Below are positions 32,047-52,804 of a stretch of DNA of 64,000 nt, in pieces (the stretch's first letter is position 1; each line of letters opens with the position of its first letter). Under the pieces are notes generated by a model. The model ran no database searches. It had not been told where the DNA came from and saw only the letters and a program-made list of their open reading frames with translations. This DNA comes from Acidimicrobiia bacterium (GTDB taxonomy: Bacteria; Actinomycetota; Acidimicrobiia; Spongiisociales; ZC4RG35), in the NCBI GenBank assembly GCA_965203555.1, contig CBDBCY010000004.1, positions 832,001 through 896,000 on the forward strand. The letters run 5' to 3'. A program made the translations under genes and the position numbers.

Positions 32047-32200
32047 ATCGCCCCTATCTCAAAAGAGAACCGGTGCATCGCGTACCTCCGAGCCGCGCCC
32101 CGTCATGGCTGCTATAGATTACCGTTTGTCGGAGAAAAACTTCCTCTCGCCACCAGTCGACCGTGCCTGACATCGCCATTGTCATTCGGGTGGGCGGGAC

Positions 32201-33670
32201 TCAAATCAAAGTCGGGTCGATAGGGTAGAGAGGCCGGGGGGCGTGCACGAATCGCAGATACTCCAAGCGGGGAGTGCTGGCGCCGGGCAGGTCGAGGGTG
32301 ATGGCTTCCGGCGCCGCAGTGGGGAAGTTGGCCCGGTAGTCGCTGCAGGATCGCACCACCAGCACATCTGTGCGATCAGGATCCAGACCGGCGTGTCGCC
32401 AGGTAGCCGGGTCGGCGGTGATGGCAGGCCGGGAAGAGATCAGAAGATGGTGACGTCCCGTGGTCAGGACAGCCCACTCACCCATCGAAACCTCCCTGCC
32501 GGTAAAGGAGCATCCTGTTAATCGATAACTCCCCGCCCCGGCGCTGGTAACCACCCCCTCCACGGTCACCTGCCGGGCGGCGGGATTGAAACCTCCGCCC
32601 ACGTCGACCTTCGTTCTGCTCCCCACCGCCCGACCACAATGTCGCGCCGCGGCGGGGTCCAGCACCGAGTGCAGCACCGTCAGGTCAGCCCCGTGCCGGG
32701 CCGCCTCGGTCACCAGTATCGGATCATCCCCGGAAGCGCCGGCCGTGGGGCAATCGGCAGTGTGCGCCATGACGAACGGCCGGGTAGAGGAAAGCCGGGC
32801 CGTGGCAAAAGCGGCAGAAGTCGTAAGGATCCGGGGGGTGACCATCCTTCCCCGTCGTCGCCAAACCTCATAGGCCAACCCCTCGGCCATCAAAGACGCC
32901 CCTTCGGCATCGTCGTCGGTGACCACCAACACCCCCAAACCGAGTTCCGGCACATCCAGCCAGGGCTGGACGGGAAAGACGGACACGTCCAAAACCTGAT
33001 CTCTGATCAGACCATTGGCTATTGTCCTCACTTCCGACATCGGGCCCACATCGGTGCGCATTCCCTCGGCAGGGATCAGAAGTGACCGCTTGGCCAGCCC
33101 CATGGCGGGCCTGATCTCGTTTCGCGCCGAGGCGGCCACCAGCCGGGCGATTCGCTCTCCTGTCGAAGCCATGTCGATATGCGGCTCGGTGTGATATCCC
33201 ACCATCACATCCGCCAACTCCACCATCCGGACGGTCAGGTTGGCGTGTAGATCCAGGCACACCCCCACCGGCGCCCCGTCCATGCGCCTGCGGGCGACTT
33301 CTATGAGCGTCGAATCAGCGTCGAAGTGATCCTCCGACACCATTGCCCCGTGCAAGGACAGCACCAGCCCGTCAAGCTTGCCGGCCTGCTTGATACCGGC
33401 GTCAAGCAACTCGGACAGCCGGTGGAAGGTCCCCTCCGTGACCGGCCCCGACGGGAGTGCCCAGGCAGCAACCAGAGGCACGTGATCTACGCCCCGCTGG
33501 CGCAATTCGGAAACCGCTCCTGCAAATTCGGTGTTGGTTCCCTCCAAAGCGACTTCCGCCTCAGCGCCGACAAGAACGGTGAAGTCTTCCCATTCGGTCG
33601 GCTTCGGGCTGAAAGTATTGGTCTCCTGAACCAGGGAGGCAACCCCAATCCTCGGACCAGCCCCGACCAT
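32201..33670 (-). CDS. M81 metallopeptidase (MlrC-like), copy 1
   Basis: QETNTFS, LSLHGAM, LDLHAN, EPHID, PWLDVPELG. Confidence 0.92.
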   Translation of the reverse strand: MVGAGPRIGVASLVQETNTFSPKPTEWEDFTVLVGAEAEVALEGTNTEFAGAVSELRQRGVDHVPLVAAWALPSGPVTEGTFHRLSELLDAGIKQAGKLDGLVLSLHGAMVSEDHFDADSTLIEVARRRMDGAPVGVCLDLHANLTVRMVELADVMVGYHTEPHIDMASTGERIARLVAASARNEIRPAMGLAKRSLLIPAEGMRTDVGPMSEVRTIANGLIRDQVLDVSVFPVQPWLDVPELGLGVLVVTDDDAEGASLMAEGLAYEVWRRRGRMVTPRILTTSAAFATARLSSTRPFVMAHTADCPTAGASGDDPILVTEAARHGADLTVLHSVLDPAAARHCGRAVGSRTKVDVGGGFNPAARQVTVEGVVTSAGAGSYRLTGCSFTGREVSMGEWAVLTTGRHHLLISSRPAITADPATWRHAGLDPDRTDVLVVRSCSDYRANFPTAAPEAITLDLPGASTPRLEYLRFVHAPRPLYPIDPTLI

Positions 33671-33920
33671 CAGGTCCTCGGGACCCCGAGTTGCACCAAA
33701 CGCGGGTACAACTGGCCTACCGATCGCTCCCCACTCCGGTTGGAGACACGGGACGAAAAGTTACCGATTCGTATCGGGATCATGACCTCTAAGTTAACCG
33801 AACTGCAAATGCCGATCTTAACCTGGACTGGATTCTATCTTTCCTACCCCGCCGGCTCACAGCACACCGGGAACGCGACAGTACATGGCGAAACCGTCCG
33901 GGCCCCAGCTCACCCCGTTG

Positions 33921-35390
33921 TCAGACCAACACCGAATCGAGAGGATAGAGAGGGCGGGGGGCGTGTTGGAAATGGAGGCTCTCCAGTTTGGGGGTGCTGG
34001 CCCCGGGTAGGTCGAGGTTGATCGCTTCGGGGGCGGCGGAGGGGAAATTGGCCCGGTAGTCACTGCAGGAACGTACCACCAGGACATCCGCCTGATCAGG
34101 ATCCAGTCCGGCATGACGCCAGGTGGCCGGATCGGCGGTGATGGCGGGAAGGGAGGTGACCAACAGATGGTGAAGACCGGAAGTGATGACCCCCCACTCG
34201 CCCATCGAAACCTCTCTTCCCGTGTGGGACAGGCCCGTCATCCGGTAGCTCCCCGCCCCGGCCGCGGTAACCACCCCCTCCACGGTGACCCGTCGCGCCG
34301 CGGGATTGAAAACCGCCCCCACCTCCATCCGCACCCGGCTTCCCACCGACCCCGCACAACGGCGGGCGGCCGCGGGGTCCAGCACCGTATGCATCACCAC
34401 CAAATCGGCCCCGTGCATTGCGGTCTCGTTCACCATTATCGGATCGTCCCCCGTAGCCCCGGCGGTGGGGCAGTCGGCGGTGTGCGCCATCACAAACGGC
34501 CGGGTCCCCGATCGCCGCGCAGTAGCAAAAGCCGCCGCGGGAGTCATGACTCGGGGGGTGGTCATCCGGGACCGTCTTCGCCAGACCTCATCCGCGAATT
34601 GCTCCGCCAGGCGGATGGCGCCGTCGGGGTCATTGTCGGTAACCACCAAAACCCCCAAACCGAGTTCCGGCACATCCAACCAGGGCTGCACCGGGGAGAT
34701 CGAGATGTCCAGCACCGGGCCTTCGGTCTTCCGGTCAGCGAGTTGGCGGACCTCGGACATCGGGCCCACGTCGGTACGCATGCCTTCGGCAGGGATCAGC
34801 AGCGGCCGTTTGGCCAAAGCCATAACGGGAGAGATGCTGCCCCGCACCGTGGCGGCGACCAGACGGGCGATTCTCTCCCCGGTCGACCCCATATCAATGT
34901 GCGGTTCGGTGTGGTATGTCACCATAACGTCCGCCGATTCCACCATCCGGCCGGTCAGGTTGGCATGCAGATCCAGGCAAACCCCCACCGGCGCACCGCC
35001 CATGCGCCTGCGGGCGACCTCTATGAGCATCGAATCAGCGTCGAAGTGGGTCTCCGACACCATCGCCCCGTGCAAGGACAGCACCAACCCGTCAAGCTTG
35101 CCGGCCTGCCTGATACCGGCGTCAAGCAACTCGGACAGCCGGTCGAACGTCTCCTCCGTAACCGGTCCCGACGGGAGGGCGTCCGCCGACAGCAACGGGA
35201 CCGGTTCCCCTCCCAGTCGCACCAGTTCGGCGGCCGCCCCGGAGAATTCCGAGTAGGTGCCGCCCAGGACATCCAATGCCTCCCGCCCCACCAGGACCGT
35301 GAAATCCTCCCACCCGGTGGGCCTGGGGCTGAATGTATTGGTCTCCTGAAAGACGGAGGCGACCCCTATCCTCGGGCTGGATCCGACCAT
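33921..35390 (-). CDS. M81 metallopeptidase (MlrC-like), copy 2
   Basis: Same motifs and same 489-aa length as copy 1. Confidence 0.92.
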   Translation of the reverse strand: MVGSSPRIGVASVFQETNTFSPRPTGWEDFTVLVGREALDVLGGTYSEFSGAAAELVRLGGEPVPLLSADALPSGPVTEETFDRLSELLDAGIRQAGKLDGLVLSLHGAMVSETHFDADSMLIEVARRRMGGAPVGVCLDLHANLTGRMVESADVMVTYHTEPHIDMGSTGERIARLVAATVRGSISPVMALAKRPLLIPAEGMRTDVGPMSEVRQLADRKTEGPVLDISISPVQPWLDVPELGLGVLVVTDNDPDGAIRLAEQFADEVWRRRSRMTTPRVMTPAAAFATARRSGTRPFVMAHTADCPTAGATGDDPIMVNETAMHGADLVVMHTVLDPAAARRCAGSVGSRVRMEVGAVFNPAARRVTVEGVVTAAGAGSYRMTGLSHTGREVSMGEWGVITSGLHHLLVTSLPAITADPATWRHAGLDPDQADVLVVRSCSDYRANFPSAAPEAINLDLPGASTPKLESLHFQHAPRPLYPLDSVLV

Positions 35391-35529
35391 CAGCCGATCA
35401 CGGTCACCAGGCTTACCGAACCCCGGTGGCGGTGGTTCCCGGCGCAGTCTCTGCGAAAAACCGGATGCACCGAGTTTGCAGGTTCGTTTCGGATCATTGC
35501 CCCTAAGTTAACCGGTTGGTGGGTGGCAT

Positions 35530-41472: not shown

Positions 41473-41805
41473 AGTGTTCCTCCTCGATTAGGGGATAGTT
41501 TGCTTTGCCATCTTAAGCTAGCCGGTTGTTCATCGACGGGTAACCAAAGCGGGGAGTTTTGCCGAGCAACCCGCAAGGAGCCCTCTTCATCAAGCCGATA
41601 GATCGGGAAGCTACCGGCATCCTGTTATCAGGCCTACTCATAAGAAGGGCTCAGAAGACGTCCTGTTTGCACAAGACAGCCCATCAGGACCTTATTTGGA
41701 CAGATTTGCTTAGCATAGCTCTTATCCGCACTAAAACGTATATATAACCCATTATCGCACAAAAATGCATGTATAAGAAAGAGAACCGTTGATATCATTC
41801 CATGC

Positions 41806-43329
41806 ATGGCCCGAACGACCTACCCCCCCTGGCCCACCGAGATGCGGTCCGTTTTCTTCGACAACGAAGACATAGCTTCGACCGCCACCCTGAGAAGGGC
41901 CGTGGCCGAGGAACGGATACGCCGCTTGGCGCCTCGACTCTATACGGCGGATCTGAAAAGTGATGCTGCTGAAATAGTGGTGGAGAACCGCTGGTTCATC
42001 CTGGGCCGCCTGCTGCCGGGTGCGCTCATAGTGGACCGTTCGGCGGCCGAAGGGGGTCGAGTGGTGAACGGCTTTCTGTTCGTAGCCTCTGAGGAAAGGC
42101 GTACGCCTATCCGGTTACCCGGTCTGGTCGTACACGTTCGTAACGGGAGACCGGTCGATGAACCGACAGAAGACCCGATGTGGGCAGAGGGTCTGAGGAT
42201 GTCCAGTCCGGCTCGAACTCTGGTGGACAACATGGCAGTGTCACGTCGTCGGGGAAAGCGACCTGCTCGAACCTTGTCGCCGAGCGAACTGGAAGATTGG
42301 CTGGCTCGGAAAGCCCTGGTCTGGGGACCGAAGCGTATATCGCGCCTTCGCGGCAACGCAGTGGCGATGGCTGAAGTTCTGGATGCACCGGATCGCGTTG
42401 AGAACATCAAACGCATCTTCGAGCAATTGGCTGGTCAGAGACCACCCAGCCCTGCCGCCGGTAGGTATTTCAGAGCGGTAGTCAAAGGTCGAGCCTGGGA
42501 CGAGCGGCGGATGGGGATGTTTCAACGATTAGTAGAAGGGCTCAATAAATACGACGATCCCGACCTGCCGGATTGGTTGCCTGCGGAGCCCTCTCCCGGG
42601 GAATTGCCTTTCTTCGAAAGCTACTTCTCGAACTACATCGAAGGAACAATCTTCACAGTGAACGAGGCCCGGCATATCGTGGAGAGCCAAGAGCCTCCAG
42701 CAACCCGCGCCGCCGATGGACACGACATACTGGGGACCCATCGCTGTGTCGTAGATCCTGTTGGCCGCAAGGCCGTCTCCGAAAAACCAGAGGAGATCGT
42801 CAGCCACCTCTGCAAACGTCACGAAACGATCATGGCCGTCGGACGACCGGAGTTGCTGCCCGGTCTATGGAAACACGAAAACAACCAGGCGGGAGGGTAT
42901 GTGTTCGTGGCTCCCAACCTGGTGGAGGGTACTCTCATGAAGGGTCTTGAACTCGTCTCCTCGGTTCCCGCCGGATTCCGGCGAGCCCTGTACGTGATGA
43001 TGGTGACCCTTGAAGTTCATCCCTTCATCGACGGAAACGGGCGGGTGGCCCGCGTGATGATGAACGCCGAACTTTCGGCAGCCAACCTGGCGCGGATCGT
43101 CATACCCAGCGTTTATCGCCGCGAATACCTCGGTGGGATACGGAGAGCCTCACTGTCGGACGGAGAGCACATCGGCAGCCTGGTCAAGGTAATGAGCTTT
43201 GCCTGGCGGTGGACCGCTGCCATGCCCTGGGAGGATCGGGCGGCTACCGAAGGGCAGTTGAAGGCCACCAACGCATTGCTGGACCCGGATGAAACCCCGA
43301 TGGGTGGCATCCGCTTGGAATTGCCCTGA
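41806..43329 (+). CDS. Fic family protein with extended N-terminal domain
   Basis: FFESYFSNYIEGT, HPFIDGNGRVAR. Confidence 0.92.
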   Translation: MARTTYPPWPTEMRSVFFDNEDIASTATLRRAVAEERIRRLAPRLYTADLKSDAAEIVVENRWFILGRLLPGALIVDRSAAEGGRVVNGFLFVASEERRTPIRLPGLVVHVRNGRPVDEPTEDPMWAEGLRMSSPARTLVDNMAVSRRRGKRPARTLSPSELEDWLARKALVWGPKRISRLRGNAVAMAEVLDAPDRVENIKRIFEQLAGQRPPSPAAGRYFRAVVKGRAWDERRMGMFQRLVEGLNKYDDPDLPDWLPAEPSPGELPFFESYFSNYIEGTIFTVNEARHIVESQEPPATRAADGHDILGTHRCVVDPVGRKAVSEKPEEIVSHLCKRHETIMAVGRPELLPGLWKHENNQAGGYVFVAPNLVEGTLMKGLELVSSVPAGFRRALYVMMVTLEVHPFIDGNGRVARVMMNAELSAANLARIVIPSVYRREYLGGIRRASLSDGEHIGSLVKVMSFAWRWTAAMPWEDRAATEGQLKATNALLDPDETPMGGIRLELP

Positions 43330-43527
43330 AGAACCGGGCGCCATTTCTGGTCCGATGGGAGGTTCGTTGCCCCGGCTCGACTCCTCGACACTGCGGCCTC
43401 CTCCGACCGGACAAGCCATCCGAGTAGCAGGGAATGGCCTGCGGACAGTCGGATCGTCCTGGAGCAGACGGGACTCTCGGCGGCGCCTCGTCCGCATCGT
43501 TCCGGTGGACGACGAACACGGCTCGGA

Positions 43528-44904
43528 TCAACCGGCGGGCAGGATCCATGCGGATGGCGCCAGGTTGCGAGGTTGGGACAGGAGGTCCACTGAGGGGTCG
43601 ACAATCCGTCGAGCGGGGCGTCCGTTCATCGACACCCAGGCATCGGCTCGCACCTCGAGATCTTCAAACCCCTGTCGTTGATAGTGATCGGCTATGAGAC
43701 GAGCCGTGGCGTGGATCAGATCAGGCCGCACGTTGGCCTGCCCGGTCTGCCAATCGGTCAAGACAAGCTCGGGTCCGGTCAGCCAGGTATGTCCTCCGGA
43801 AGTATCGGTAACTCGATACTCGACGTACCCCGTCTTCTCGGTGAGCATGACCCGCCATGACCAGTAGTAACCCTCCTCGGTCCATCTCACGTTCCCGGTG
43901 TAGGCGTAGTGTCGCAGCGGCAGCAGCACCTGGAACAAAGCCAAGGCGACCAAAAGCACCACAGCCGGTCGGGTGATCCTTGCCGTTGCACCAGGCGCCG
44001 CTGCTCTCGCCTTGGACCCTGGTCGGATTGCTCGCCACGCCTTTACGGGCCAGTCGGGGCCGAAAAACACCAGACCACTCACGATCATCACCCACGGAAA
44101 CACCCCTATCCGGAACATCACTCCGGTGGCTAGATGAAACCCGACCAGCGCCATGTACGCCCACGGACGGCTGCGACGCCACAGCAGCCAGGCCACGATG
44201 GTGCAGTCGAAAAAGGCGCCCCCCCAACTGGCCAGGTAGGCGACCACCGGCTCATCGAGAAGGGGCCCGATGATCGGAAGATGGGTGCGGTCGGCCAGCC
44301 ACAGCCGCAGCGGTTGGGCTCTCAGCAGCCAATCTCCGTTGAGTTTGGCCAACCCGGCGAAGGCATAGAGCAGACCCAACTGCCCCCGGAGCACCCAGAC
44401 CACCGCCGCCGACACGGTCGCTCTCGCCTCCACCCGACCTGCCCGGGCGTCGAGCGACCAGCGATGGTGCACGGGGAGGAGCACCAACAGCACTGCGGCC
44501 AGCGTGACGAACCAGTAGTGGTTCAGATACAGGACCGCGTCGATCAATTCCGTGTAGGTGAATCCCACCGCATACAACGCCGCGGCCAGCCGATGCCGGT
44601 ACCCCAAGGCCACACAGATCCCCAGAAGAGCCAGCACCACCATGAGAAGGTGCATCCACGGAGCGGGAAGCGGGTGAACCCAGTCGAAGCCCGGATAACT
44701 CAGATGATTGGTAGGCGCGAGATAGAGGCTGTCCACCCAGCCGCGGGCCAGAAAACGGACTGAACCGAAGGTCGCCACCACCCCGAAGCCGATACGAAAG
44801 ACTGCCACCGAGTCGGCAGCCACCGGCCGCCGGGCCGCAGCGCCGAGTCGCGCCAGAAAATCCGACAGGGGTCGGGCTTCAACCGGAACTGTCGCCGTCG
44901 GCAT
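43528..44904 (-). CDS. HTTM / vitamin K-dependent gamma-carboxylase-like protein
   Basis: FRIGFG, YLNHYW, AGLAKLNGDWL, IGVFPW, WTEEGYYWSWRVML, SMNGRP...IVDP. Confidence 0.9.
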   Translation of the reverse strand: MPTATVPVEARPLSDFLARLGAAARRPVAADSVAVFRIGFGVVATFGSVRFLARGWVDSLYLAPTNHLSYPGFDWVHPLPAPWMHLLMVVLALLGICVALGYRHRLAAALYAVGFTYTELIDAVLYLNHYWFVTLAAVLLVLLPVHHRWSLDARAGRVEARATVSAAVVWVLRGQLGLLYAFAGLAKLNGDWLLRAQPLRLWLADRTHLPIIGPLLDEPVVAYLASWGGAFFDCTIVAWLLWRRSRPWAYMALVGFHLATGVMFRIGVFPWVMIVSGLVFFGPDWPVKAWRAIRPGSKARAAAPGATARITRPAVVLLVALALFQVLLPLRHYAYTGNVRWTEEGYYWSWRVMLTEKTGYVEYRVTDTSGGHTWLTGPELVLTDWQTGQANVRPDLIHATARLIADHYQRQGFEDLEVRADAWVSMNGRPARRIVDPSVDLLSQPRNLAPSAWILPAG

Positions 44905-45928
44905 CGCTGAACCCGAGGGCCACTCCCAATTGGGCGATCACCTCGGTGGCCACGCTGATCTGCACGGCTTTCACGGCATCCCGGGCGGCTGCGACCACGG
45001 CGGGAGTGTCGACCACGGCCTGCCGCAGGGGTGGTCGGATAGCCTCCACGGCGTCAAGGGCGGCAATCATCTGCGTTGAGAGCCGTTCCGCCAGGTCTTC
45101 GGTCAACAGGGCGTCCAGCCCGGAATCGAGGTCCTGCCCGATCAATACCGATTGCAAGCCGAGCAAACGTTCCAGAAGGTCAGTCACCCCACCGCCCGCC
45201 TCACCTTCCTGGATGGCTTCCAGTTTGGGTGAACGGCCCATCACTCCCAGGGCAGAACCCAATTCCAGGTCGGTGACGGATTCGAGAAGGAAGAAGGCGT
45301 CGTTTACCAACGAGTCCAACCCGTCGCCGTCGGCAACGCTGAACGTTTCCCGGTAGGGAGCGCCTCCCTCCCGGCCGGTGGTCCAGTCGGAGAGAAGCAG
45401 GTCGGCCTGGTCGGCAATGATCTCCGAGACGGTTTGCAGGTATTCGCACCTGCGGGGATCCTGCAGCGCAGCCAGTGGGTCGTCTCCGGCGTGGAGAACG
45501 TACTCCAACCCATCCAGGCCCCGCTGATCGGATCCGATGCGGGTGGCCAGGCGCTCGAAGTCCAACCCGACAGAAGTGTCGGAAATCATATCCTCGATCT
45601 GGTCGGGGTCCACCGGCCACCGGACCACCGACCAGGACCGCCGTTCCATCACCGGACCCACCCACATCGCCTGGGCGCCCACCCAAGCCTGGCGTGCGGA
45701 ATCCACCGCGGTCCGCGAAGCGGCCAGCCCCGCACTGTCCGGGGCTTCACAGAATCCACCGATGGTGGAGTACATGTGGGAAGCAGCGGCTTGGAACCGC
45801 TCGTAAGCGGGGATGATCGCCTCGCCAGCCAAATCGTCCAGGATCTCCGGACGGCTCGGGGCTCCCGCGCAGGAAGCCGCCAAAACCGCGAACGCAACCA
45901 GTGTCCCGACCGGGCGTCGGAGGTTCAC
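44879..45928 (-). CDS. Imelysin-like (M75) lipoprotein lacking the motif His
   Basis: Lipobox LAASC, IIPAY, ARQAW, VGP, RGLDGLEYVL, C-terminal GFSDADGD. Confidence 0.85.
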   Translation of the reverse strand: MNLRRPVGTLVAFAVLAASCAGAPSRPEILDDLAGEAIIPAYERFQAAASHMYSTIGGFCEAPDSAGLAASRTAVDSARQAWVGAQAMWVGPVMERRSWSVVRWPVDPDQIEDMISDTSVGLDFERLATRIGSDQRGLDGLEYVLHAGDDPLAALQDPRRCEYLQTVSEIIADQADLLLSDWTTGREGGAPYRETFSVADGDGLDSLVNDAFFLLESVTDLELGSALGVMGRSPKLEAIQEGEAGGGVTDLLERLLGLQSVLIGQDLDSGLDALLTEDLAERLSTQMIAALDAVEAIRPPLRQAVVDTPAVVAAARDAVKAVQISVATEVIAQLGVALGFSDADGDSSG

Positions 45929-47310
45929 AATGCCTCCAAAAAAGCCACCAAATCAGCCCGGTCCTCGGCATCGGCCATCCTGAACGCCTCGCGGGAAGCT
46001 TCAGCCTCTCCGCCGTGCCACAGTATGGCTTCCTCCAAGGTCCTGGCCCGGCCGTCATGCAGAAGGAACCGATACCCCTGGACATCGTCAACAAGTCCGA
46101 GACCCCACAGCGGCGGGGTGCGCCACTCGCTACCGCTGGCCGCGAAATCTTCCCTGTTATCAGCCAGACCCGGTCCCATGTCGTGCAGCAACAGATCAGT
46201 GTAGGGATGAATGGTCTGGTTGGAGAGGGTCAAAAGGTCCACTGTTCCGGTCTGGTGGGTGGGAGTGTGACAGGCCGCACACCCAAAGTCCGCAAACAAC
46301 TGCGCGCCGGCCCGCACCGGGGCAGTCTCATGTCCCCGCATGGCGGGAACCGCCAGGGTGCGGATGTACAGGACCACAAACGCCAGGCGGGAGTCGGTTA
46401 TCTCAGGCGTGCCTCCGTGAGGAGCGGCGGAGCAATCTCGTTGGACGGGCCTGCAGTTCTCTTCGGGGTGCAGAACCGAAGTTATCCCGATGTCGCCGTG
46501 AAACGCTCCGGCGGCCTGCTGCTCGGCGGTGGCGACATTGGCCTTCCATCCAAACCGGCCCAGGGTATGGGTTCCCGCCCTGGCATCCCAAACCACATTG
46601 GCCCGGCCGGAGATGCCGTCGCCGTCGGCGTCATCGGGGTCGGCGGCGGCCAATATCGATTCGGCGGGAATAGCTTCCAGCAACCCTATTCCCACCACCT
46701 GCTGTGCCAAACGGGAACTGGTACGCACATTTTCCGCCAGGGGACCGAAGGCGAGATCGACGATCTCGTATGTCGGCGCCCGCAGCTCGAATTCGCTGCC
46801 GTCGCCGTAGGCGCCGACGATGTACTCGTAGGTCACGTTCAATGTCCCTTCGGCAGGCACCCCCAGAACGGACCGATCCTGCAACTGGCCACCGTACACC
46901 GGATCCGGCAGCGGCGCACCGGTGACGGGGTCTGCACCGGGAACCGAGAGCCTGACGAGCAGACCCAGACGCGTCTGCGCTCCGGTGGGATCGGGAGGAA
47001 GTCCTCGTCCGTCCAGCAGGTGACAGGACGCACAAGCTTGAGCATTGAAGACTGGACCCAGCCCGTCCCTGGCCTCGGTGGAAGCCGGAGCGGAAACCCA
47101 GTTCTGGGTAAAGAAACTGTCCCCTACCTCGAACAGCCGGCGTTCTTCGTTGGACAGTTGGGGCGCCGGCAGGCTAAACGAGTTCCTGGAGACATCGCTG
47201 CGCGTGGTATCACCGCCCAGTTTGGGGTCCAGAACCAAATCATCGGCGCTGCAGGCACCGGCCAGCAGGACAAAGCCCACCACGATCAACGGAGTAACCC
47301 GATGGGCCAC
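45925..47310 (-). CDS. Di-heme oxidoreductase (DHOR) lipoprotein
   Basis: GLGPVFN, CASCH, GRFGWKA, CAACH, YTDLLLHDMG, EWRTPPLWG, LHDGRA. Confidence 0.93.
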   Translation of the reverse strand: MAHRVTPLIVVGFVLLAGACSADDLVLDPKLGGDTTRSDVSRNSFSLPAPQLSNEERRLFEVGDSFFTQNWVSAPASTEARDGLGPVFNAQACASCHLLDGRGLPPDPTGAQTRLGLLVRLSVPGADPVTGAPLPDPVYGGQLQDRSVLGVPAEGTLNVTYEYIVGAYGDGSEFELRAPTYEIVDLAFGPLAENVRTSSRLAQQVVGIGLLEAIPAESILAAADPDDADGDGISGRANVVWDARAGTHTLGRFGWKANVATAEQQAAGAFHGDIGITSVLHPEENCRPVQRDCSAAPHGGTPEITDSRLAFVVLYIRTLAVPAMRGHETAPVRAGAQLFADFGCAACHTPTHQTGTVDLLTLSNQTIHPYTDLLLHDMGPGLADNREDFAASGSEWRTPPLWGLGLVDDVQGYRFLLHDGRARTLEEAILWHGGEAEASREAFRMADAEDRADLVAFLEAL

Positions 47311-47373
47311 CTCTAGCCGATCCGGCCGATACCTGGCAACTCCTTCACCTTTTCGAAAAAGCCAAGTCTCGTA

Positions 47374-48555
47374 TCAGCTGACCTCTATGGCAATGCCGAG
47401 GGCATCCGCGGCAGCCACGATGGTGTCGGTCTGGGTTTCCAGGGCCTCGATGGTAGAGAGCACCTGCTGGCGACCGGGATCGTTGTCCGACACCCCGTCC
47501 CGGAGGTGCTGATCAAACGGCGCCGGAATGGCCCGGGCGGCATTGATGCTGACCGCTACCTCTCCTCTGAGCTGCTGGGCCAGTTCACTGTCGGCCGCAG
47601 CAATGACATCGAGCAGGCCGGTGCCGGAGACACCGCCCGGGTAGCTGCCCAGCAGCACCATCTCCACGCCACGGGCGTTGCCAATAATGTCAACCGTGGT
47701 GTTGTCCGAGAAGCAGGAATGTTCATCCTCCTGGGAACGCTCCAGATACGCAACGCTCATACGCTCGCCGGCCAATTCGCCACGAGACATCTCGCCGATA
47801 CCGGTGAAGGCCAGCCTGAGTGCGTCGGAGGAGTCCATTGCCTCGAAACCGGCCCGGTAGTTGTTCTGCCCCGGCGCCCAGGCAACCACCAGTTCTTCGA
47901 GATGGGCCACCAATTGATCTGTCACCGCAGCCAGATAGGCTGCTCGGCGATCAGCGTTGGCGGCGGTGGTGTAGTCCTCCACCGGACGATCGCCGGGACC
48001 GTTCTCATTCATGTCCTGACCCCATAGCAGGAATTCGATGGCATGCCAGCCCGTCGACACGTTGGCCTCGCCACCCTGCTCGTTCAACTCCACCAGGAGG
48101 TCGGCGGTGATTTCCGGATAGGCGCCCGGATCGTTGATGATCCCGGTTCCCGAGTCTCCTTCGACATAGTCGATGTAACCCTCGTCCAAGGGCCAGGCGT
48201 TTATGAGACCTTCGGTACCGGTCTCCTCGTTGTCGATGGGACCCCCATAGAAACGGAACACTTCTGTTGGACCGTAGTCCACCCTGGCCACCAACCAGGC
48301 CTGGCGCGCTGCGTCCAGGGTGGCCTGGGAGGGGGAGTCCAGGAAGGCGTCGATAGCTGAGTCCATGGCCCTCGCCGAGAAGAGACTGGCCTGATAAGCC
48401 GAGTGCACGCCGGCGGCATAGGTTGCCGCGGCGTCATCAAGCACAGCCTCGTCGACCGACGAATCATCGGCGCAGGCGGACAGCGTCAGGGCAATGGCTG
48501 CAACCAGGGACAAGAGGCGGACAAGACTTAGCGAGTTTGTGTTAGTACGTAGCAT
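47374..48555 (-). CDS. Imelysin/IrpA-like iron-regulated lipoprotein (start uncertain)
   Basis: Lipobox LSAC, TEVFRFYGGPID, INAWPLDEGYID, TGWHAIEFLLWGQD (GxHxxE), EDEHSCFSDNT. Confidence 0.92.
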   Translation of the reverse strand: MLRTNTNSLSLVRLLSLVAAIALTLSACADDSSVDEAVLDDAAATYAAGVHSAYQASLFSARAMDSAIDAFLDSPSQATLDAARQAWLVARVDYGPTEVFRFYGGPIDNEETGTEGLINAWPLDEGYIDYVEGDSGTGIINDPGAYPEITADLLVELNEQGGEANVSTGWHAIEFLLWGQDMNENGPGDRPVEDYTTAANADRRAAYLAAVTDQLVAHLEELVVAWAPGQNNYRAGFEAMDSSDALRLAFTGIGEMSRGELAGERMSVAYLERSQEDEHSCFSDNTTVDIIGNARGVEMVLLGSYPGGVSGTGLLDVIAAADSELAQQLRGEVAVSINAARAIPAPFDQHLRDGVSDNDPGRQQVLSTIEALETQTDTIVAAADALGIAIEVS

Positions 48556-48875
48556 ATTTTGCATAATAAACATTTTATAAAACATTTGCCAAATACCAAT
48601 AGTGTCAAACCGCGACCCCATGAGGCAGGCTGGACTACAAACCCGGCCAGGAGCCTTTACGCCCGGTATTTCTGCCGGGAACAACGAAGAGCACTGACGT
48701 CAACTGTCTCTTCATTTTGGCCGAGAAGTTCTCGACACCAGGTTCGCGGTTCTCCGGGAAGGCCTGAGAAAGGCAAGAACTCTTCGATGAGTCCGGACCC
48801 CGCTGCCGTCGGGCGGCGCCGGAGGTCCCGTTCGCGCAGAACCCGGAGCCAGGACGGGGCGAACTCCGCCGGACG

Positions 48876-50291
48876 TCAGTCGCGGAGCCCGGGCAGGTCG
48901 GGGCCGAAACCCTGGCGGAAGTCGAACTCCTCAGTCTCCACCGTGGCGGCCCCCAGTTGCCGGCTGGCTTTCTCGGCGGCGATGATCATGCTCTTGGGGC
49001 CGCACAGCGCGACATGGCCGCCCCTGAGGCCGTCGGGTCCGAAGTGCTCAGCCAGAGTCGACTTCCCGAATCGTCGCCCCTCCGCGGAGGCGATGACCTG
49101 CAGACTGATTCTGCCCTCGGCGTGGGCCTTGCCGAGCAGGTCCATCCCCATCGCGTCAGCCCGGTTTCGCACGCAATAGAACAGCACGGGAGGATTGTCG
49201 GAGTCGGCAGGCATCATCGTCGAGTTGGACAAAAACGGTGTGATGCCCACGCCGCCGGCCACCCAGACGGTCGGGGCGTCGTTTTTGGATGTCTCGAACG
49301 TTCCGTACGGTCCTTCCACCAACACCTCGAGTCCGACCAGATCGGTGTCGTGGAGCTTCGCCGTCCAGTCGCCCAGCCGACGGATGAAAAAGCGCAGATG
49401 GCCCGAGCCGGGCGGCGCGGCGACAGTGAACACATGCGGCTCGGACAGTCCCCGCTTCTGGAACTTCAGGACTGCGAACTGCCCTGCGTGGTAGTCGAGA
49501 TGCCTGCCCACCGGCTCGAGGACGATATCCAGGGCCGTCCCCACCTTCGCCGCGGACACGACCCGGTATCGCAGGCCCCGAAAGATCATGTCGCGCACGA
49601 TCAGACGGTGGAGGCACGCGGCCATCCCGACGGCCATGATGGCGTTCAGGAGTATTCCCGCCCCCGACCAATTCTGAAAGGGCTTCTCGGCGGTGTACAC
49701 GTGCCACACGGCGAACGCGTACGGTACGCCGAACAACTTGTGGGTGAGGCGCCACCATCGGTACGGCATCCATCTGAGAATGCTGAACACGAACAGGACG
49801 AGGCTGATGATGACTGCCGCCGACGCCAACCCGAGCGCGGTGTCGGCAGTCGATTGAGCGACCTCCAGATAGCCGCCGCGGATGCCGGCCGAGCCAGCGT
49901 GGAACAGCATCGTGGGAATAGCCAGCGCGCCGGTCCAGCGATGCACCCGGTAAGCGCGGTCGAGACCGCCGAAAACAGGCTCCAACCACGGGATGCGAAC
50001 GGCCAACACGAAGCTCCAGGACATGAGCACCAGCGACATCGCGCCGATGGTCAGTCCCGACGCGCGGGCGTTGCCGCCGGGTCCCGAACCGCTCGACACC
50101 GCGATCGCCGACGCGAAGACCGACACCACCACGATCGACGGGCCCACCCACCCCAGATGCGGCCGCAGGATGCGGATGCTGGGAGCCTTCAGGCGCCAGT
50201 CCTGGCGACGCCCGAACAACCGCCGCAGTGGCGAGGGCCGCGAGCGGGCACGCGGCAGGGAGCGGGGATACCGGGCGGCATCGGCGACCAT
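48876..50291 (-). CDS. Ferric reductase-like TM domain plus FAD/NAD-binding oxidoreductase (start uncertain)
   Basis: FGGLDRAYRVHRW, WRLTHK, HAGQF, EPHVFT, GDWT, EGPYG, AGGVGITPF, CGP, EEFDFR. Confidence 0.9.
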   Translation of the reverse strand: MVADAARYPRSLPRARSRPSPLRRLFGRRQDWRLKAPSIRILRPHLGWVGPSIVVVSVFASAIAVSSGSGPGGNARASGLTIGAMSLVLMSWSFVLAVRIPWLEPVFGGLDRAYRVHRWTGALAIPTMLFHAGSAGIRGGYLEVAQSTADTALGLASAAVIISLVLFVFSILRWMPYRWWRLTHKLFGVPYAFAVWHVYTAEKPFQNWSGAGILLNAIMAVGMAACLHRLIVRDMIFRGLRYRVVSAAKVGTALDIVLEPVGRHLDYHAGQFAVLKFQKRGLSEPHVFTVAAPPGSGHLRFFIRRLGDWTAKLHDTDLVGLEVLVEGPYGTFETSKNDAPTVWVAGGVGITPFLSNSTMMPADSDNPPVLFYCVRNRADAMGMDLLGKAHAEGRISLQVIASAEGRRFGKSTLAEHFGPDGLRGGHVALCGPKSMIIAAEKASRQLGAATVETEEFDFRQGFGPDLPGLRD

Positions 50292-50302
50292 CCGACGTCG
50301 TT

Positions 50303-51100
50303 CTACTCTCGGCGAATGGTCCTGCGCCACGGGGACCAGCGGGTAGCAGCATAGGCCATGGCCTCGTCGGTGAGCAGCAACCGCGTCGAATTGCCGATGC
50401 GCACGTAGAAATCGGCGGCGCGGCGCCCGCCCGGAGGGTTGGCGAACACGGCCCGAGGATGCGGGTCGACGTCGATGCGGACCACGTTGTGCAATCCGCA
50501 CGGCGGGAACGAGACCCTGATCGAGGCCATCGCGGCACTGCCCAATGTGGATTGGAGCATGTCGGCCAGCCAGAGATGGTAGCGATCGAAGTCGGGCTGC
50601 TTCATGTGCTGCAGGTCGTCGTCGAGTCCTACCGGATGGCCGGCGTCGTCGACCCCGACCAGCAGTGTTCCGCCGCGGCTGTTCAGGAAGCCGGCCACGG
50701 TCTTGGCCACCGCCATCTCGATCCGGGCGTCCCGCCGGCCGGTGCGGACGTTGTGTCGTGCGGTCTGCTTGAACTCGACTTCTTCCGATTCCCCGGCGCC
50801 CAGGATCTCGCTTACGGACTTCGCCGAGCGCTTGGCAACCGCCGACGCCACCGCGGCGTAGACAGCGAGCACACCGACGGACCCGGCGACCGCCGACGCC
50901 ACCGACAGCACCGTCGGCTCGAATGCCGCGCTGCCGCTGAAAAGCGACAACAAGGTCGTTCCGACGCCTGCGCCGACCATGCCCACCAGGATGGTCTCGG
51001 CCCACGACAGCGACACCCGTCGCCTCAGCATCAGGCGAGCGACAGTGCCCAGCACCAGTCCGGCGAGAAGGAACCCGATCCAGGAGAACCCGCTCAGCAC
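50303..51100 (-). CDS. GlsB/YeaQ/YmgE-like TM domain fused to a Schlafen AlbA_2 domain
   Basis: GLVLGTVARLML...TILVGMVGAGVG; GESEEVEFKQT, KTVAGFLNSRGGTLLVGVDD, FYVRIGNST. Confidence 0.88.
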   Translation of the reverse strand: MLSGFSWIGFLLAGLVLGTVARLMLRRRVSLSWAETILVGMVGAGVGTTLLSLFSGSAAFEPTVLSVASAVAGSVGVLAVYAAVASAVAKRSAKSVSEILGAGESEEVEFKQTARHNVRTGRRDARIEMAVAKTVAGFLNSRGGTLLVGVDDAGHPVGLDDDLQHMKQPDFDRYHLWLADMLQSTLGSAAMASIRVSFPPCGLHNVVRIDVDPHPRAVFANPPGGRRAADFYVRIGNSTRLLLTDEAMAYAATRWSPWRRTIRRE

Positions 51101-51331
51101 GGTCGACCCCCGGACGCGCCGACGACGGTACGGGCCGTCACGTCAGTGTCGTCGTCTCTTGGTTCTGTGCGCATCGCTAAGGACCTCATAGTGGTCCGGG
51201 CGTACTGTACCGCCAAACTCTTGTGAGAGGCTCGGGCTGTGAGGGGGGCTAGCAGCCTCACGAACAGCCACTGCCCTCCGGCGCAATCAAGTGGGAGCGC
51301 CGGCGCGCCGGTCACCGGTCGCGGTGAGGGC

Positions 51332-51370
51332 ATCACTGCGATCGGCAACTCCGTCGGCGTCATAGTCCCT
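51332..51370 (+). pseudogene. AbrB/MazE-like antitoxin N-terminal remnant
   Basis: ITAIGNSVGVIVP matches the AbrB N-terminal signature; no start or continuation. Confidence 0.4.
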
Positions 51371-51432
51371 CACCCCCGAGTAACAACCAAGAGCGCCCAA
51401 GCAAACAGAGTCCTTCGCCTCGCCGGGAGAGG

Positions 51433-52323
51433 TCAGTTCTCGGAAGGAGTTTCGCAGGCATCGTCAAACAGTTCTTCGATCCGCTGGAAGAAACCCTCGA
51501 AGTCCTGTCCATCCTCGTTTTCCGAGCCTTCCAGATCTTCGATGTCTTCGACAATGTCCGACAGACTCTGAAAGTCGAGTTCGCAGTCTTCGAGAAAGGC
51601 CAGGTCGGGCAGAATATCTCCGAAGGCGAATCCGAACAATCCCTCAAAAGGCATTTCCCCAAAAGGCATTTCCCCGTCCTCGCTCCATGAGTTCTCTTCC
51701 CAGAACCTCTTCTCTCTGTCCTCCCCGTTGTCGAACCGGTCGGGACTGCCGAACCCGTCGGGCCACCCCATGCCCGGACGGAACCGACCTTCATCCCAAC
51801 GCCTCTCGATGAGACTCCCGATCTCTTCGACGGCCTCTTCGATAAGTTCCTCCAACACCTCATAGGGGATATAGATACCCCTGCGGTCTCCGAACTCCCC
51901 ACCGAGCGGCCCCCTCTCCGGGAACCAACCCCTGCGGTCCCCTTTCCAATCGAATTCTCCATCGAGGCCCGGGAAGGGGCGGAACCGCCTTCCGTCCCGC
52001 CACCGTTTTCCTTCATCGGACCACTCCTCGAGAGGTTTCACCTCGGATGCGGAAAAGCCCTGCTCGTGACGGTCGTCCAACTCCACCCCCCCATCCCCGT
52101 CTTCGTACCAGAGTCCGATCAGCACTCCCGCGCCCAGGAGCAGCACCCCCACTCCCAGCCGCCACCAAAAAGCCCACTTGCCCAAATAGCCGAAAATTCT
52201 GCCCAGGCGTCTTCTTCTGCGGGCCGGGGTCTCGCTCTCCTCCATCGGGGTCTCGCTCTCCTCCATCTCCGAGTCGGGGGATGGTGACGATTCCTCCGGA
52301 TTCCGGTCATGCTGTTCTTCCAT
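51433..52323 (-). CDS. Highly acidic single-TM hypothetical protein
   Basis: gaggag RBS; one TM; D/E/G/F-rich low-complexity ectodomain with two Cys. Confidence 0.7.
   Translation of the reverse strand: MEEQHDRNPEESSPSPDSEMEESETPMEESETPARRRRRLGRIFGYLGKWAFWWRLGVGVLLLGAGVLIGLWYEDGDGGVELDDRHEQGFSASEVKPLEEWSDEGKRWRDGRRFRPFPGLDGEFDWKGDRRGWFPERGPLGGEFGDRRGIYIPYEVLEELIEEAVEEIGSLIERRWDEGRFRPGMGWPDGFGSPDRFDNGEDREKRFWEENSWSEDGEMPFGEMPFEGLFGFAFGDILPDLAFLEDCELDFQSLSDIVEDIEDLEGSENEDGQDFEGFFQRIEELFDDACETPSEN
51646..51675 (+). repeat. 15-bp tandem repeat (GEMPF x2)
   Basis: aaaaggcatttcccc x2. Confidence 0.85.
52225..52266 (+). repeat. 21-bp tandem repeat (MEESETP x2)
   Basis: cggggtctcgctctcctccat x2. 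Confidence 0.85.
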
Positions 52324-52495
52324 GTTGCTCCTCGCTAACCGCGTCTTCTGTTCCGTTGTGTCCCATTACCCATAAAAACACCATAAACACCATGCGGACC
52401 GGCGTCCAGACCCACCGCACGGGGGCGCTGTCCCGACCGGTTCGACTCATGGCGAAGTCGTCACTCTCAACAGATTTGTAGCATTCGGGACATAG

Positions 52496-52804
52496 ATGAA
52501 AGAGCGAGACCGGAACATGAAAGGGCCGCAGGCGCAGTCGGATTCGACGTCGTCCCCGGCAAAATCCCCCCTGAAGAAACCCGCCCTCCCCTGGAGGGTG
52601 GCAGGCGGCGGGCTGATCGCCCTGCTTTTGATCTGGTTCGTCATCCAGAATTCCCACCCGGTGGAAGTCCGCCTGTTCTGGTGGGCCGGCGCTTTCCCCA
52701 TGATCATGGTCCTGGCGGCTGTGGTGGTGGCCACCATCCTGATCCGGGAGACACTGGGGTCGATCAGGCGACGACGACGCAGACGAAGGCCCAAAGGTGG
52801 CTGA
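52496..52804 (+). CDS. LapA/DUF1049 family membrane protein
   Basis: WFVIQNSHPVEVRLFWW, two TM segments, Arg-rich tail. Confidence 0.8.
   Translation: MKERDRNMKGPQAQSDSTSSPAKSPLKKPALPWRVAGGGLIALLLIWFVIQNSHPVEVRLFWWAGAFPMIMVLAAVVVATILIRETLGSIRRRRRRRRPKGG

Follow-up and report, generated by a model that had tools for sequence, protein, structure and literature searches.

We analyzed a 64,000-nucleotide stretch of an Acidimicrobiia bacterium genome (positions 832,001 to 896,000 of contig CBDBCY010000004.1 in assembly GCA_965203555.1; hereafter, the window), in which the minus-strand open reading frame (ORF) at 50303..51100 encodes a small protein with a Schlafen-type nuclease domain. Very probably, this bacterial Schlafen (pSlfn) domain is anchored in the membrane by an N-terminal module of three transmembrane (TM) helices, and, judged by analogy with its relatives, it is likely to be an active RNase. 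Our best reading, which we consider somewhat probable, is that of a membrane-tethered, conditionally active pSlfn endoribonuclease. The bacterial Schlafen nuclease family as such is already known, and the membrane-anchored form appears from its sequence to be a variant that has been annotated by homology. In the initial annotation of the gene, this architecture was said not to be known as characterized. Indeed, no characterized TM-Schlafen fusion was found in the literature, but the architecture itself is already on record in Joint Genome Institute (JGI) protein names and in a cluster of the ESM Atlas.

The ORF starts with GTG and encodes 265 amino acids (aa) followed by a stop codon. Its guanine-plus-cytosine (G+C) content by codon position (0.66/0.51/0.85) is coding-like, and the long ORFs that overlap it in other frames are expected at about 65% G+C. 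Homologs of the 265-aa protein form a graded series that includes an identical copy (P0001; 100% identity), and close homologs share its start residue. Because of the coding-like composition, the identical protein, the graded homologs, and the common start residue, we conclude that the ORF is a real gene encoding a small membrane protein with a Schlafen-type domain. No promoter was found in a scan of positions 48600-52600, and the five terminator-like sites in the same region (2.7 ± 1.7 expected) are not above the number in shuffled sequences. Comparisons within the family are based on an alignment of 72 relatives, in which mean column identity is 53% and both the TM module and the nuclease module are conserved. 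An AlphaFold2 model built on the same 72 sequences (predicted local distance difference test [pLDDT] score, 88.3) consists of three helices followed by an alpha/beta domain.

Domain architecture of the protein

The Schlafen/AlbA_2 nuclease domain, which is predicted to be cytoplasmic, comprises aa 96-256 (50333..50815, minus strand) and is modeled with a pLDDT of 94 to 98 over most of its length. Pfam family PF04326 (SLFN_AlbA_2) matches aa 104-241, a span of more than 100 aa, with an E value of 1.4e-13 (score, 51.8 bits; cut-off, 25.3), and it is matched in 72/72 relatives, too. The domain carries an E-x4-E-x-K motif, ESEEVEFK (aa 104-111; 50768..50791, minus strand), formed by E104, E109, and K111, which corresponds to the Ex4(E/D)xK motif defined for pSlfns (PMC13056530). 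Downstream of it in the protein lies GVDD (aa 149-152; 50645..50656, minus strand). In a phmmer comparison with PDB sequences, aa 100-155 align with ES..(I/V)EFKQ...GG.L..GVDD of rat SLFN13 (5yd0), SLFN11, and SLFN14, which brings both motifs into register with those of the mammalian proteins. E104, E109, K111, and D152 are invariant in all 72 relatives; D151 varies. Counted along the alignments, E104, E109, and D152 fall on what we take to be the catalytic E/E/D of SLFN13 and SLFN11, and D152, the second Asp of GVDD, is assigned by sequence to the position of the third catalytic acid. The active-site residues thus appear to be under strong conservation, which points to selection for catalysis.

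In structural comparisons by Foldseek and VIA-align, the matched segment was aa 93-256/265 of the AlphaFold2 model, a predicted structure. Foldseek gave E values of 1.6e-5 to 1e-3 for matches to DIP2311, SAMD9, and SLFN5/11/12/13/14. VIA-align gave Z scores of 13.6 for the AlbA_2 domain of DIP2311, 13.4 and 12.6 for the DNA-binding/tRNase domain of SAMD9, and 9.2 to 10.5 for the catalytic lobe of SLFN5/11/12/13/14. In the SLFNs, the structural matches span only chain residues ~170-350, and the nuclease part of our protein is a single catalytic lobe of ~165 aa rather than a two-lobed Schlafen core; it has no N-lobe, linker, or helicase. Compared with the core of SLFN11/13/14 and the AlbA_2 tRNase domain of SAMD9, the protein shares the catalytic-lobe fold (Z scores of 9.2 to 13.4) and the aligned acidic residues but consists of one lobe only and is membrane-anchored. 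The gene was initially described as encoding a Schlafen core with intact acidic residues and with neither a helicase nor an ATPase. The acidic residues of ESEEVEFK and GVDD are intact, with E104, E109, and D152 invariant, and no helicase or ATPase was found in the chain, which ends at aa 265; what does not hold is the whole two-lobed core, which is reduced here to one AlbA_2 lobe.

The N-terminal module (aa 1-92; 50825..51100, minus strand) has three TM segments, as had been proposed. Hydropathy analysis places them at aa 5-26, 36-55, and 62-89, with no hydrophobic stretch in the rest of the protein, and the helices of the AlphaFold2 model lie at aa 4-25, 33-55, and 64-92. Across the 72 relatives, loop 1 has a family-wide Lys-plus-Arg count of 1.22 and the region after TM3 one of 2.96; the loop between TM2 and TM3 is acidic. 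Because loop 1 and the region after TM3 are basic whereas loop 2 is acidic, the N terminus would, by the positive-inside rule, be outside, and the nuclease domain is predicted to face the cytoplasm. Three residues of the TM part (G18, R22, and G43) are invariant in the alignment.

The module is probably a divergent GlsB/YeaQ/YmgE domain (Transgly_assoc; PF04226), as suggested by profile matches among its relatives. PF04226 is detected at an E value of ≤0.01 in 43/72 relatives (best E value, 6.8e-8), several relatives have precomputed PF04226 matches, and JGI labels relatives as YeaQ/YmgE. Both Pfam families occur in the nearest ESM Atlas cluster, PF04226 on 26% of its 53 members. The NCBIfam YeaQ model PRK10457 matches aa 6-84 of the query, nearly end to end, with an E value of 0.0027 and 18.2 bits against a cut-off of 129. 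In an hhalign comparison, a profile of 26 N termini aligned over 73 co-linear columns with the genome's own Transgly_assoc protein (31.3 bits), at an E value of 8.8e-5 and a probability of 59.9%. The transglycosylase-associated pattern claimed in the initial annotation is probable at the level of the family, but the query itself stays below the Pfam cut-off (15 versus 25.3 bits). The module resembles GlsB/YeaQ/YmgE proteins in its length (~85 aa), its three TM helices, and its Gly-rich G..AR...G..G pattern; it differs from them in that a 170-aa cytoplasmic nuclease domain is attached to it, the free members being stand-alone proteins.

Kinship and spread of the family

The nuclease lobe descends from a clade of C-terminal effectors in defense proteins. 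A profile of the domain matches end to end, at 84 to 207 bits, the C-terminal domains of GmrSD_N (DUF262)-, BrxL-, and HsdR-type fusions, whose domain orders are GmrSD_N (DUF262)-...-AlbA_2, BrxL_N + BrxL_ATPase + AlbA_2, and HsdR-like (T1R_D3-like) + AlbA_2, respectively. In a midpoint-rooted IQ-TREE tree of 27 domains, the TM family forms one clade (support, 90/88), which has two DUF262 fusions as its sister group (93/90) and lies within a set of effector-type domains; the paralogs from the source genome, which can be aligned only in part, were left out of this tree. With pSlfn7 (DUF262-pSlfn; EcoSlfn7), its sister in the tree, the TM family shares PF04326, the Ex4(E/D)xK motif, and the position of the domain at the C terminus behind a variable N-terminal module. 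It differs from pSlfn7 in having the three-TM module instead of DUF262 (the query has no GmrSD_N match) and in not being associated with defense islands in a sample of 44 loci (see below).

The source genome (3.4 Mb) contains 13 frames with an AlbA_2/Schlafen domain, that is, 12 besides the TM gene. Each of the other frames that were checked (7/7) combines AlbA_2 with HATPase_c_4, with or without a helix-turn-helix (HTH) domain. Such AlbA_2-HATPase_c_4(-HTH) proteins (pSlfn1/2; DIP2311, PDB 3lmm) are like the TM family in their AlbA_2 fold (Z score, 13.6), but their AlbA_2 domain is N-terminal, and the paralogs of this type in the source genome match the domain profile of the TM family weakly, at 17 to 24 bits over ~60 positions. 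Thirteen AlbA_2 frames in a 3.4-Mb genome amount to a marked expansion of the pSlfn1/2 type.

Large fusion proteins with a C-terminal Schlafen domain were also seen in Acidimicrobiia genomes of the same genus or order as the source. At one locus (L018; 1-1983, plus strand), the domain follows BrxL_N and BrxL_ATPase in a frame whose 5′ end lies beyond the locus. At two others (L024, 1402-3468, and L029, 1498-3576, both on the minus strand), it is the C-terminal domain of T1R_D3-like proteins resembling type I restriction R subunits.

At least two further TM modules, unrelated by sequence to this one, occur in fusion with the same pSlfn subtype. Of the short relatives returned by the exhaustive search described below, 18 were inspected, and 5 of these have other hydrophobic N termini that do not match the TM profile of the family. 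The other TM-module fusions of this Schlafen subtype are of a 2-TM type (P0198, P0204, and P0260) and a 4-TM type (P0255 and P0250). Two of the three 2-TM-type clusters carry proteobacterial source names (Halopseudomonas and Tropicimonas), and the TM modules of the proteobacterial P0198 and P0204 do not match the N-terminal profile of the family. This repeated fusion to unrelated TM modules suggests that membrane coupling has been selected repeatedly.

The 2-TM and 4-TM fusions may correspond to a class that has been published as pSlfn10, "Photosystem I subunit X PsaK.pSlfn" (PMC13056530 [Perez Taboada et al., Nat Microbiol 2026], cited throughout from part of the paper and its supplement). 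This class was assigned by structure; it has 31 members of ~270-293 aa and a defense score of 0.16, and its rows include Methylococcales and Cytophagales. The TM family is like pSlfn10 in being a small protein of similar size, in having an N-terminal helical membrane-type module followed by the pSlfn domain, and in its low defense association; the phyla are different, and the two are likened by domain order and size, not by sequence. The strings "Transgly," "PF04226," and "membrane" are absent from 12 of the supplement files of this paper; the other 5 were not searched for them.

The family is large, is mostly confined to Acidimicrobiia, and has a patchy distribution. A word-indexed protein search yielded 223 clusters of relatives among the 8000 candidates scored, and at least 538 relatives were confirmed among the 601 pattern matches listed in a metagenome scan. 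An exhaustive HMMER search with the family profile returned 11,074 representatives at an E value of ≤1e-3 and 1,516 at an E value of ≤1e-30. Among the best 150 of these representatives, 26 (counted as clusters at 50% identity) span the TM and nuclease modules in one stretch, P0128 spans them in two, and 4 are partial; the remaining ones match by the nuclease domain only, which is mostly C-terminal in proteins of 144 to 1168 aa.

The named sources of the family are Acidimicrobiia/Actinomycetota, and the most similar named records, at 70% identity, come from two Candidatus Poriferisodalis assemblies. In species-representative genomes, we detected the full-length form in the source genome, in one other among 40 relatives, and in none of 16 congeners. 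In the class as a whole, it is present in 11/401 genomes at an E value of ≤1e-40 and is concentrated in one family (6/25). In one genus (g21), all four genomes (4/4) carry the gene. No relative was found on viral contigs among the 17 pattern matches examined.

Genomic neighborhoods

We surveyed 44 loci, each with ±7 kb of flanking sequence, in which 312 called ORFs fell into 194 clusters; an upstream neighbor was available at 35 loci and a downstream neighbor at 42. The neighborhoods are mostly metabolic. The most recurrent neighbors are enoyl-CoA hydratase (11 loci), DUF4389 (8), and purM (7), followed by DUF4349, class III aminotransferase, PPK2, purF, and rhomboid genes. Because no neighbor is conserved across the whole family in the 44 loci, the TM-Schlafen gene appears to work stand-alone.

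A gene for a DUF4389 membrane protein is the next same-strand gene directly after the TM-Schlafen gene in 8/44 loci (L042, L043, L045, L046, L047, L058, L059, and L060) and in genome G036 (L036). In five loci, the end of the Schlafen match and the start of the DUF4389 gene overlap; in three, they are separated by 36 to 39 nt. In one lineage, the TM-Schlafen gene is the X of a purF-purM-X-DUF4389 block, and the median pairwise identity in this purM-X-DUF4389 lineage is 59.5% for the TM-Schlafen protein versus 63.6% for PurM (21 pairs). DUF4389 may be an operon partner specific to that lineage, but it was rejected as an obligatory one, being missing from most loci and not found in the source genome.

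None of the PADLOC families matched the 265-aa protein itself. Applied to representatives of the 194 neighbor clusters, PADLOC identified one clear and two doubtful defense neighborhoods among the 44 loci. At the clear one (L064; 10001-17618), the TM-Schlafen gene is followed downstream by genes for a Mutator-family transposase, an NsnA/GmrSD_N-like protein, and a DrmB-like protein. The doubtful cases are a helicase at L102 that matches DpdJ/BrxHI and may be an ordinary Lhr-type enzyme and the Fic protein of the window, which matches SoFic. All other matches are generic (ABC ATPase, HTH, subtilase, group II intron reverse transcriptase, and MotB-like). Overall, the genomic context gives little defense signal, and the 44 loci do not bear out either co-localization with known defense genes or the inference of anti-phage defense that had initially been drawn for this gene.

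In the source genome, the TM-Schlafen gene lies at the edge of a species-specific island of ~10 kb (41560..51430), which was delimited by blastn against the syntenic regions of two congeners; these keep the flanks and lack the island. According to Pfam, the island contains a Fic-domain gene, HTTM, imelysin, di-heme oxidoreductase, and a second imelysin gene, a ferric-reductase-like gene, and the Schlafen gene. No tRNA gene or bounding direct repeat was found at the island, and no integrase was seen there. The Fic-domain gene (41806-43329) has weak PADLOC matches to SoFic (E value, 2.5e-10) and PDC-S04 (E value, 1.6e-12). The HTTM-imelysin-di-heme oxidoreductase-imelysin cluster, together with the ferric-reductase-like gene, looks like an iron-acquisition module.

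The ferric-reductase-like gene (48876..50291, minus strand) encodes a membrane flavoprotein with the domains Ferric_reduct, FAD_binding_8, and NAD_binding_1. It starts 12 nt past the Schlafen stop codon, with no terminator-like site in the gap, and co-transcription of the two genes is possible. It was not found in four congeners. At L037 (4477-6798), in a Candidatus Poriferisodalis assembly, a Schlafen homolog with 70% identity adjoins a ferric-reductase-like ortholog with 74% identity. The Schlafen gene is inverted there relative to window positions 48876-51100 and is followed by a P-type ATPase gene; the homology ends at the Schlafen stop codon, and no flanking inverted repeats that could explain the inversion were found. 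A HipA/HTH pair lies ~4 kb from this homolog. The adjacency is limited to two close relatives, in which the relative orientation is opposite, and the ferric-reductase-like gene is at most a candidate functional partner.

Two further observations concern the rest of the window. The minus-strand gene at 51433-52323 encodes a 296-aa protein of no Pfam family, in which a single TM helix lies between a very acidic, Glu/Ser/Pro-rich N terminus and a C-terminal part of acidic/aromatic character; the region has a lowered G+C content (0.59) and a strongly negative GC skew (-0.26). A diverged homolog of this acidic TM protein is retained at the same place in congeners. At ~32.2-33.7 kb and ~33.9-35.4 kb (32182-35393), two stretches are both matched by a single segment per congener region (73 to 81% identity), which suggests a tandem gene duplication in the source genome or a paralog pair.

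Possible roles of the membrane-anchored nuclease

Two characterized pSlfns serve as the models for our reading. RorSlfn5 is a phage-activated hexameric tRNase (PMC13056530), and CbCash is a single-lobe pSlfn tRNase that is gated by rearrangement of its oligomer (PMC13462974, likewise cited from part of its content). By analogy with these two enzymes, the Schlafen lobe would cut tRNA or other structured RNA. Because characterized pSlfns are gated by their oligomeric arrangement, we propose an inactive enzyme held in the membrane. The arrangement imposed by the fused non-nuclease module, here a Gly-rich TM bundle, would gate the activity, a change in membrane or envelope state would switch the enzyme on, and activation would lead to translation arrest. 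Gating through the TM module is the more tentative part of this proposal, and anti-phage defense as the main role seems to us rather unlikely. We lean toward a general membrane-stress or conflict effector that has been domesticated into the core genome in some lineages, rather than a classical defense-island gene.

Several points weigh against this reading. The Transgly_assoc match in the query (aa 37-85) has an E value of 0.03 and lies below the cut-off, and the hhalign probability of 59.9% is low; both the PF04226 and the hhalign scores of the N-terminal module may be inflated by TM composition. GlsB/YeaQ/YmgE proteins have no known mechanism (none was found in a literature search at the level of titles and abstract openings), and gating through such a module is our inference. 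The genomic context is mixed: the housekeeping synteny and the divergence at about the rate of purM would fit a constitutive cellular role, and the patchy spread (11/401 class genomes and 0/16 congeners) and the species-specific island would fit an accessory or conflict gene. In addition, the neighborhood survey relied on a crude home-made gene caller, on contigs that are often truncated, on cluster representatives only, and on PADLOC models from 2023.

A dedicated single-gene anti-phage (abortive-infection) system, in which the TM part would detect an entering phage or a membrane lesion induced by it, upon which tRNA is destroyed by the Schlafen lobe, would agree with the kinship of the domain, whose nearest relatives are effector domains of DUF262/BrxL/HsdR-type defense proteins. 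Moreover, two pSlfn fusions, EcoSlfn7 (DUF262-pSlfn) and RorSlfn5 (Ig-pSlfn), protect against phage experimentally (PMC13056530). The patchy distribution, with no copy found in 16 congeners, the Fic protein with weak SoFic/PDC-S04 matches in the same species-specific island, and the position of the L064 homolog near a Mutator transposase, an NsnA/GmrSD-like gene, and DrmB are also in line with such a system. We nevertheless judge it unlikely. The protein has no PADLOC match, and the one clear and two doubtful defense neighborhoods among 44 loci contrast with the 69.6% of pSlfns found near defense genes in a study of 5,930 pSlfns from RefSeq complete genomes, where the TM-type class pSlfn10 has a defense score of 0.16 (PMC13056530). 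The stable purM-X-DUF4389 synteny, the purM-like divergence in one lineage, and the failure to find relatives on viral contigs likewise speak against it.

Some of the same evidence would favor a constitutive membrane-localized enzyme of RNA processing or turnover with a housekeeping role, comparable in its tethering to RNase Y or RNase E. The neighborhoods are mostly metabolic, the gene is present in 4/4 genomes of genus g21, and its divergence in the syntenic lineage roughly equals that of purM; furthermore, 30.4% of pSlfns may have non-immune roles (PMC13056530). However, a gene found in 11/401 class genomes and 0/16 congeners cannot be generally essential, and this one is island-borne in the source genome and derives its domain from a conflict-effector clade, so that a housekeeping role appears improbable. 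TM effectors are common in defense systems, and the roles of the two modules might be reversed, with AlbA_2 as a nucleic-acid sensor and the TM module as an effector that permeabilizes the membrane upon oligomerization. The AlbA_2 domain of SAMD9 also binds DNA, according to the title of PDB entry 7ksp, and 1/72 relatives has a marginal match to a holin family (E value, 0.0095). This match is at noise level, no pore-forming role is known for GlsB/YeaQ/YmgE proteins, and the four catalytic-site residues are invariant in 72/72 relatives, all of which make a reversal of roles very improbable. Hardly credible is a tether whose sole role is to bind DNA or RNA without any catalysis: it would be in line with NCBI names of the type "putative DNA binding domain-containing protein," and some mammalian SLFNs lack catalytic residues (PMC13462974), but these names are automatic, and the catalytic residues of the TM family are intact and invariant.

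To return to the membrane-tethered, conditionally active endoribonuclease, a more specific and distinctly speculative version of it is that the three-TM GlsB/YeaQ/YmgE-like module is a true sensor of membrane state. If the membrane were depolarized or the envelope damaged, be it by phage entry, by holins, or by abiotic stress, the TM bundle would rearrange, and the cytoplasmic Schlafen lobes would be switched into an active, tRNA-cutting oligomer. The envelope-stress or phage-entry sensor suggested in the initial annotation is likewise speculative. The evidence on the role of the protein is split: the patchy spread and the island point to an accessory conflict gene, whereas the synteny, the slow divergence, and the low score of pSlfn10 point to stress or RNA metabolism.

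It was only in 2025-26 that bacterial Schlafens were shown to act as anti-phage tRNases, with a specificity conferred by soluble sensor domains fused to them. Whether the ~30% of pSlfns outside defense islands have non-immune roles is a question that the TM-Schlafen family could address directly. The family is suited to it in being large, in having a membrane module at the "sensor" position and a nuclease from a defense-effector clade, and in occurring in a mostly housekeeping context. The family is also a way to approach the function of the GlsB/YeaQ/YmgE stress proteins. If the membrane-state sensor proves true, no Schlafen nuclease before this one would have been under membrane control, and the widespread fold of the GlsB/YeaQ/YmgE stress proteins would gain its first molecular function.

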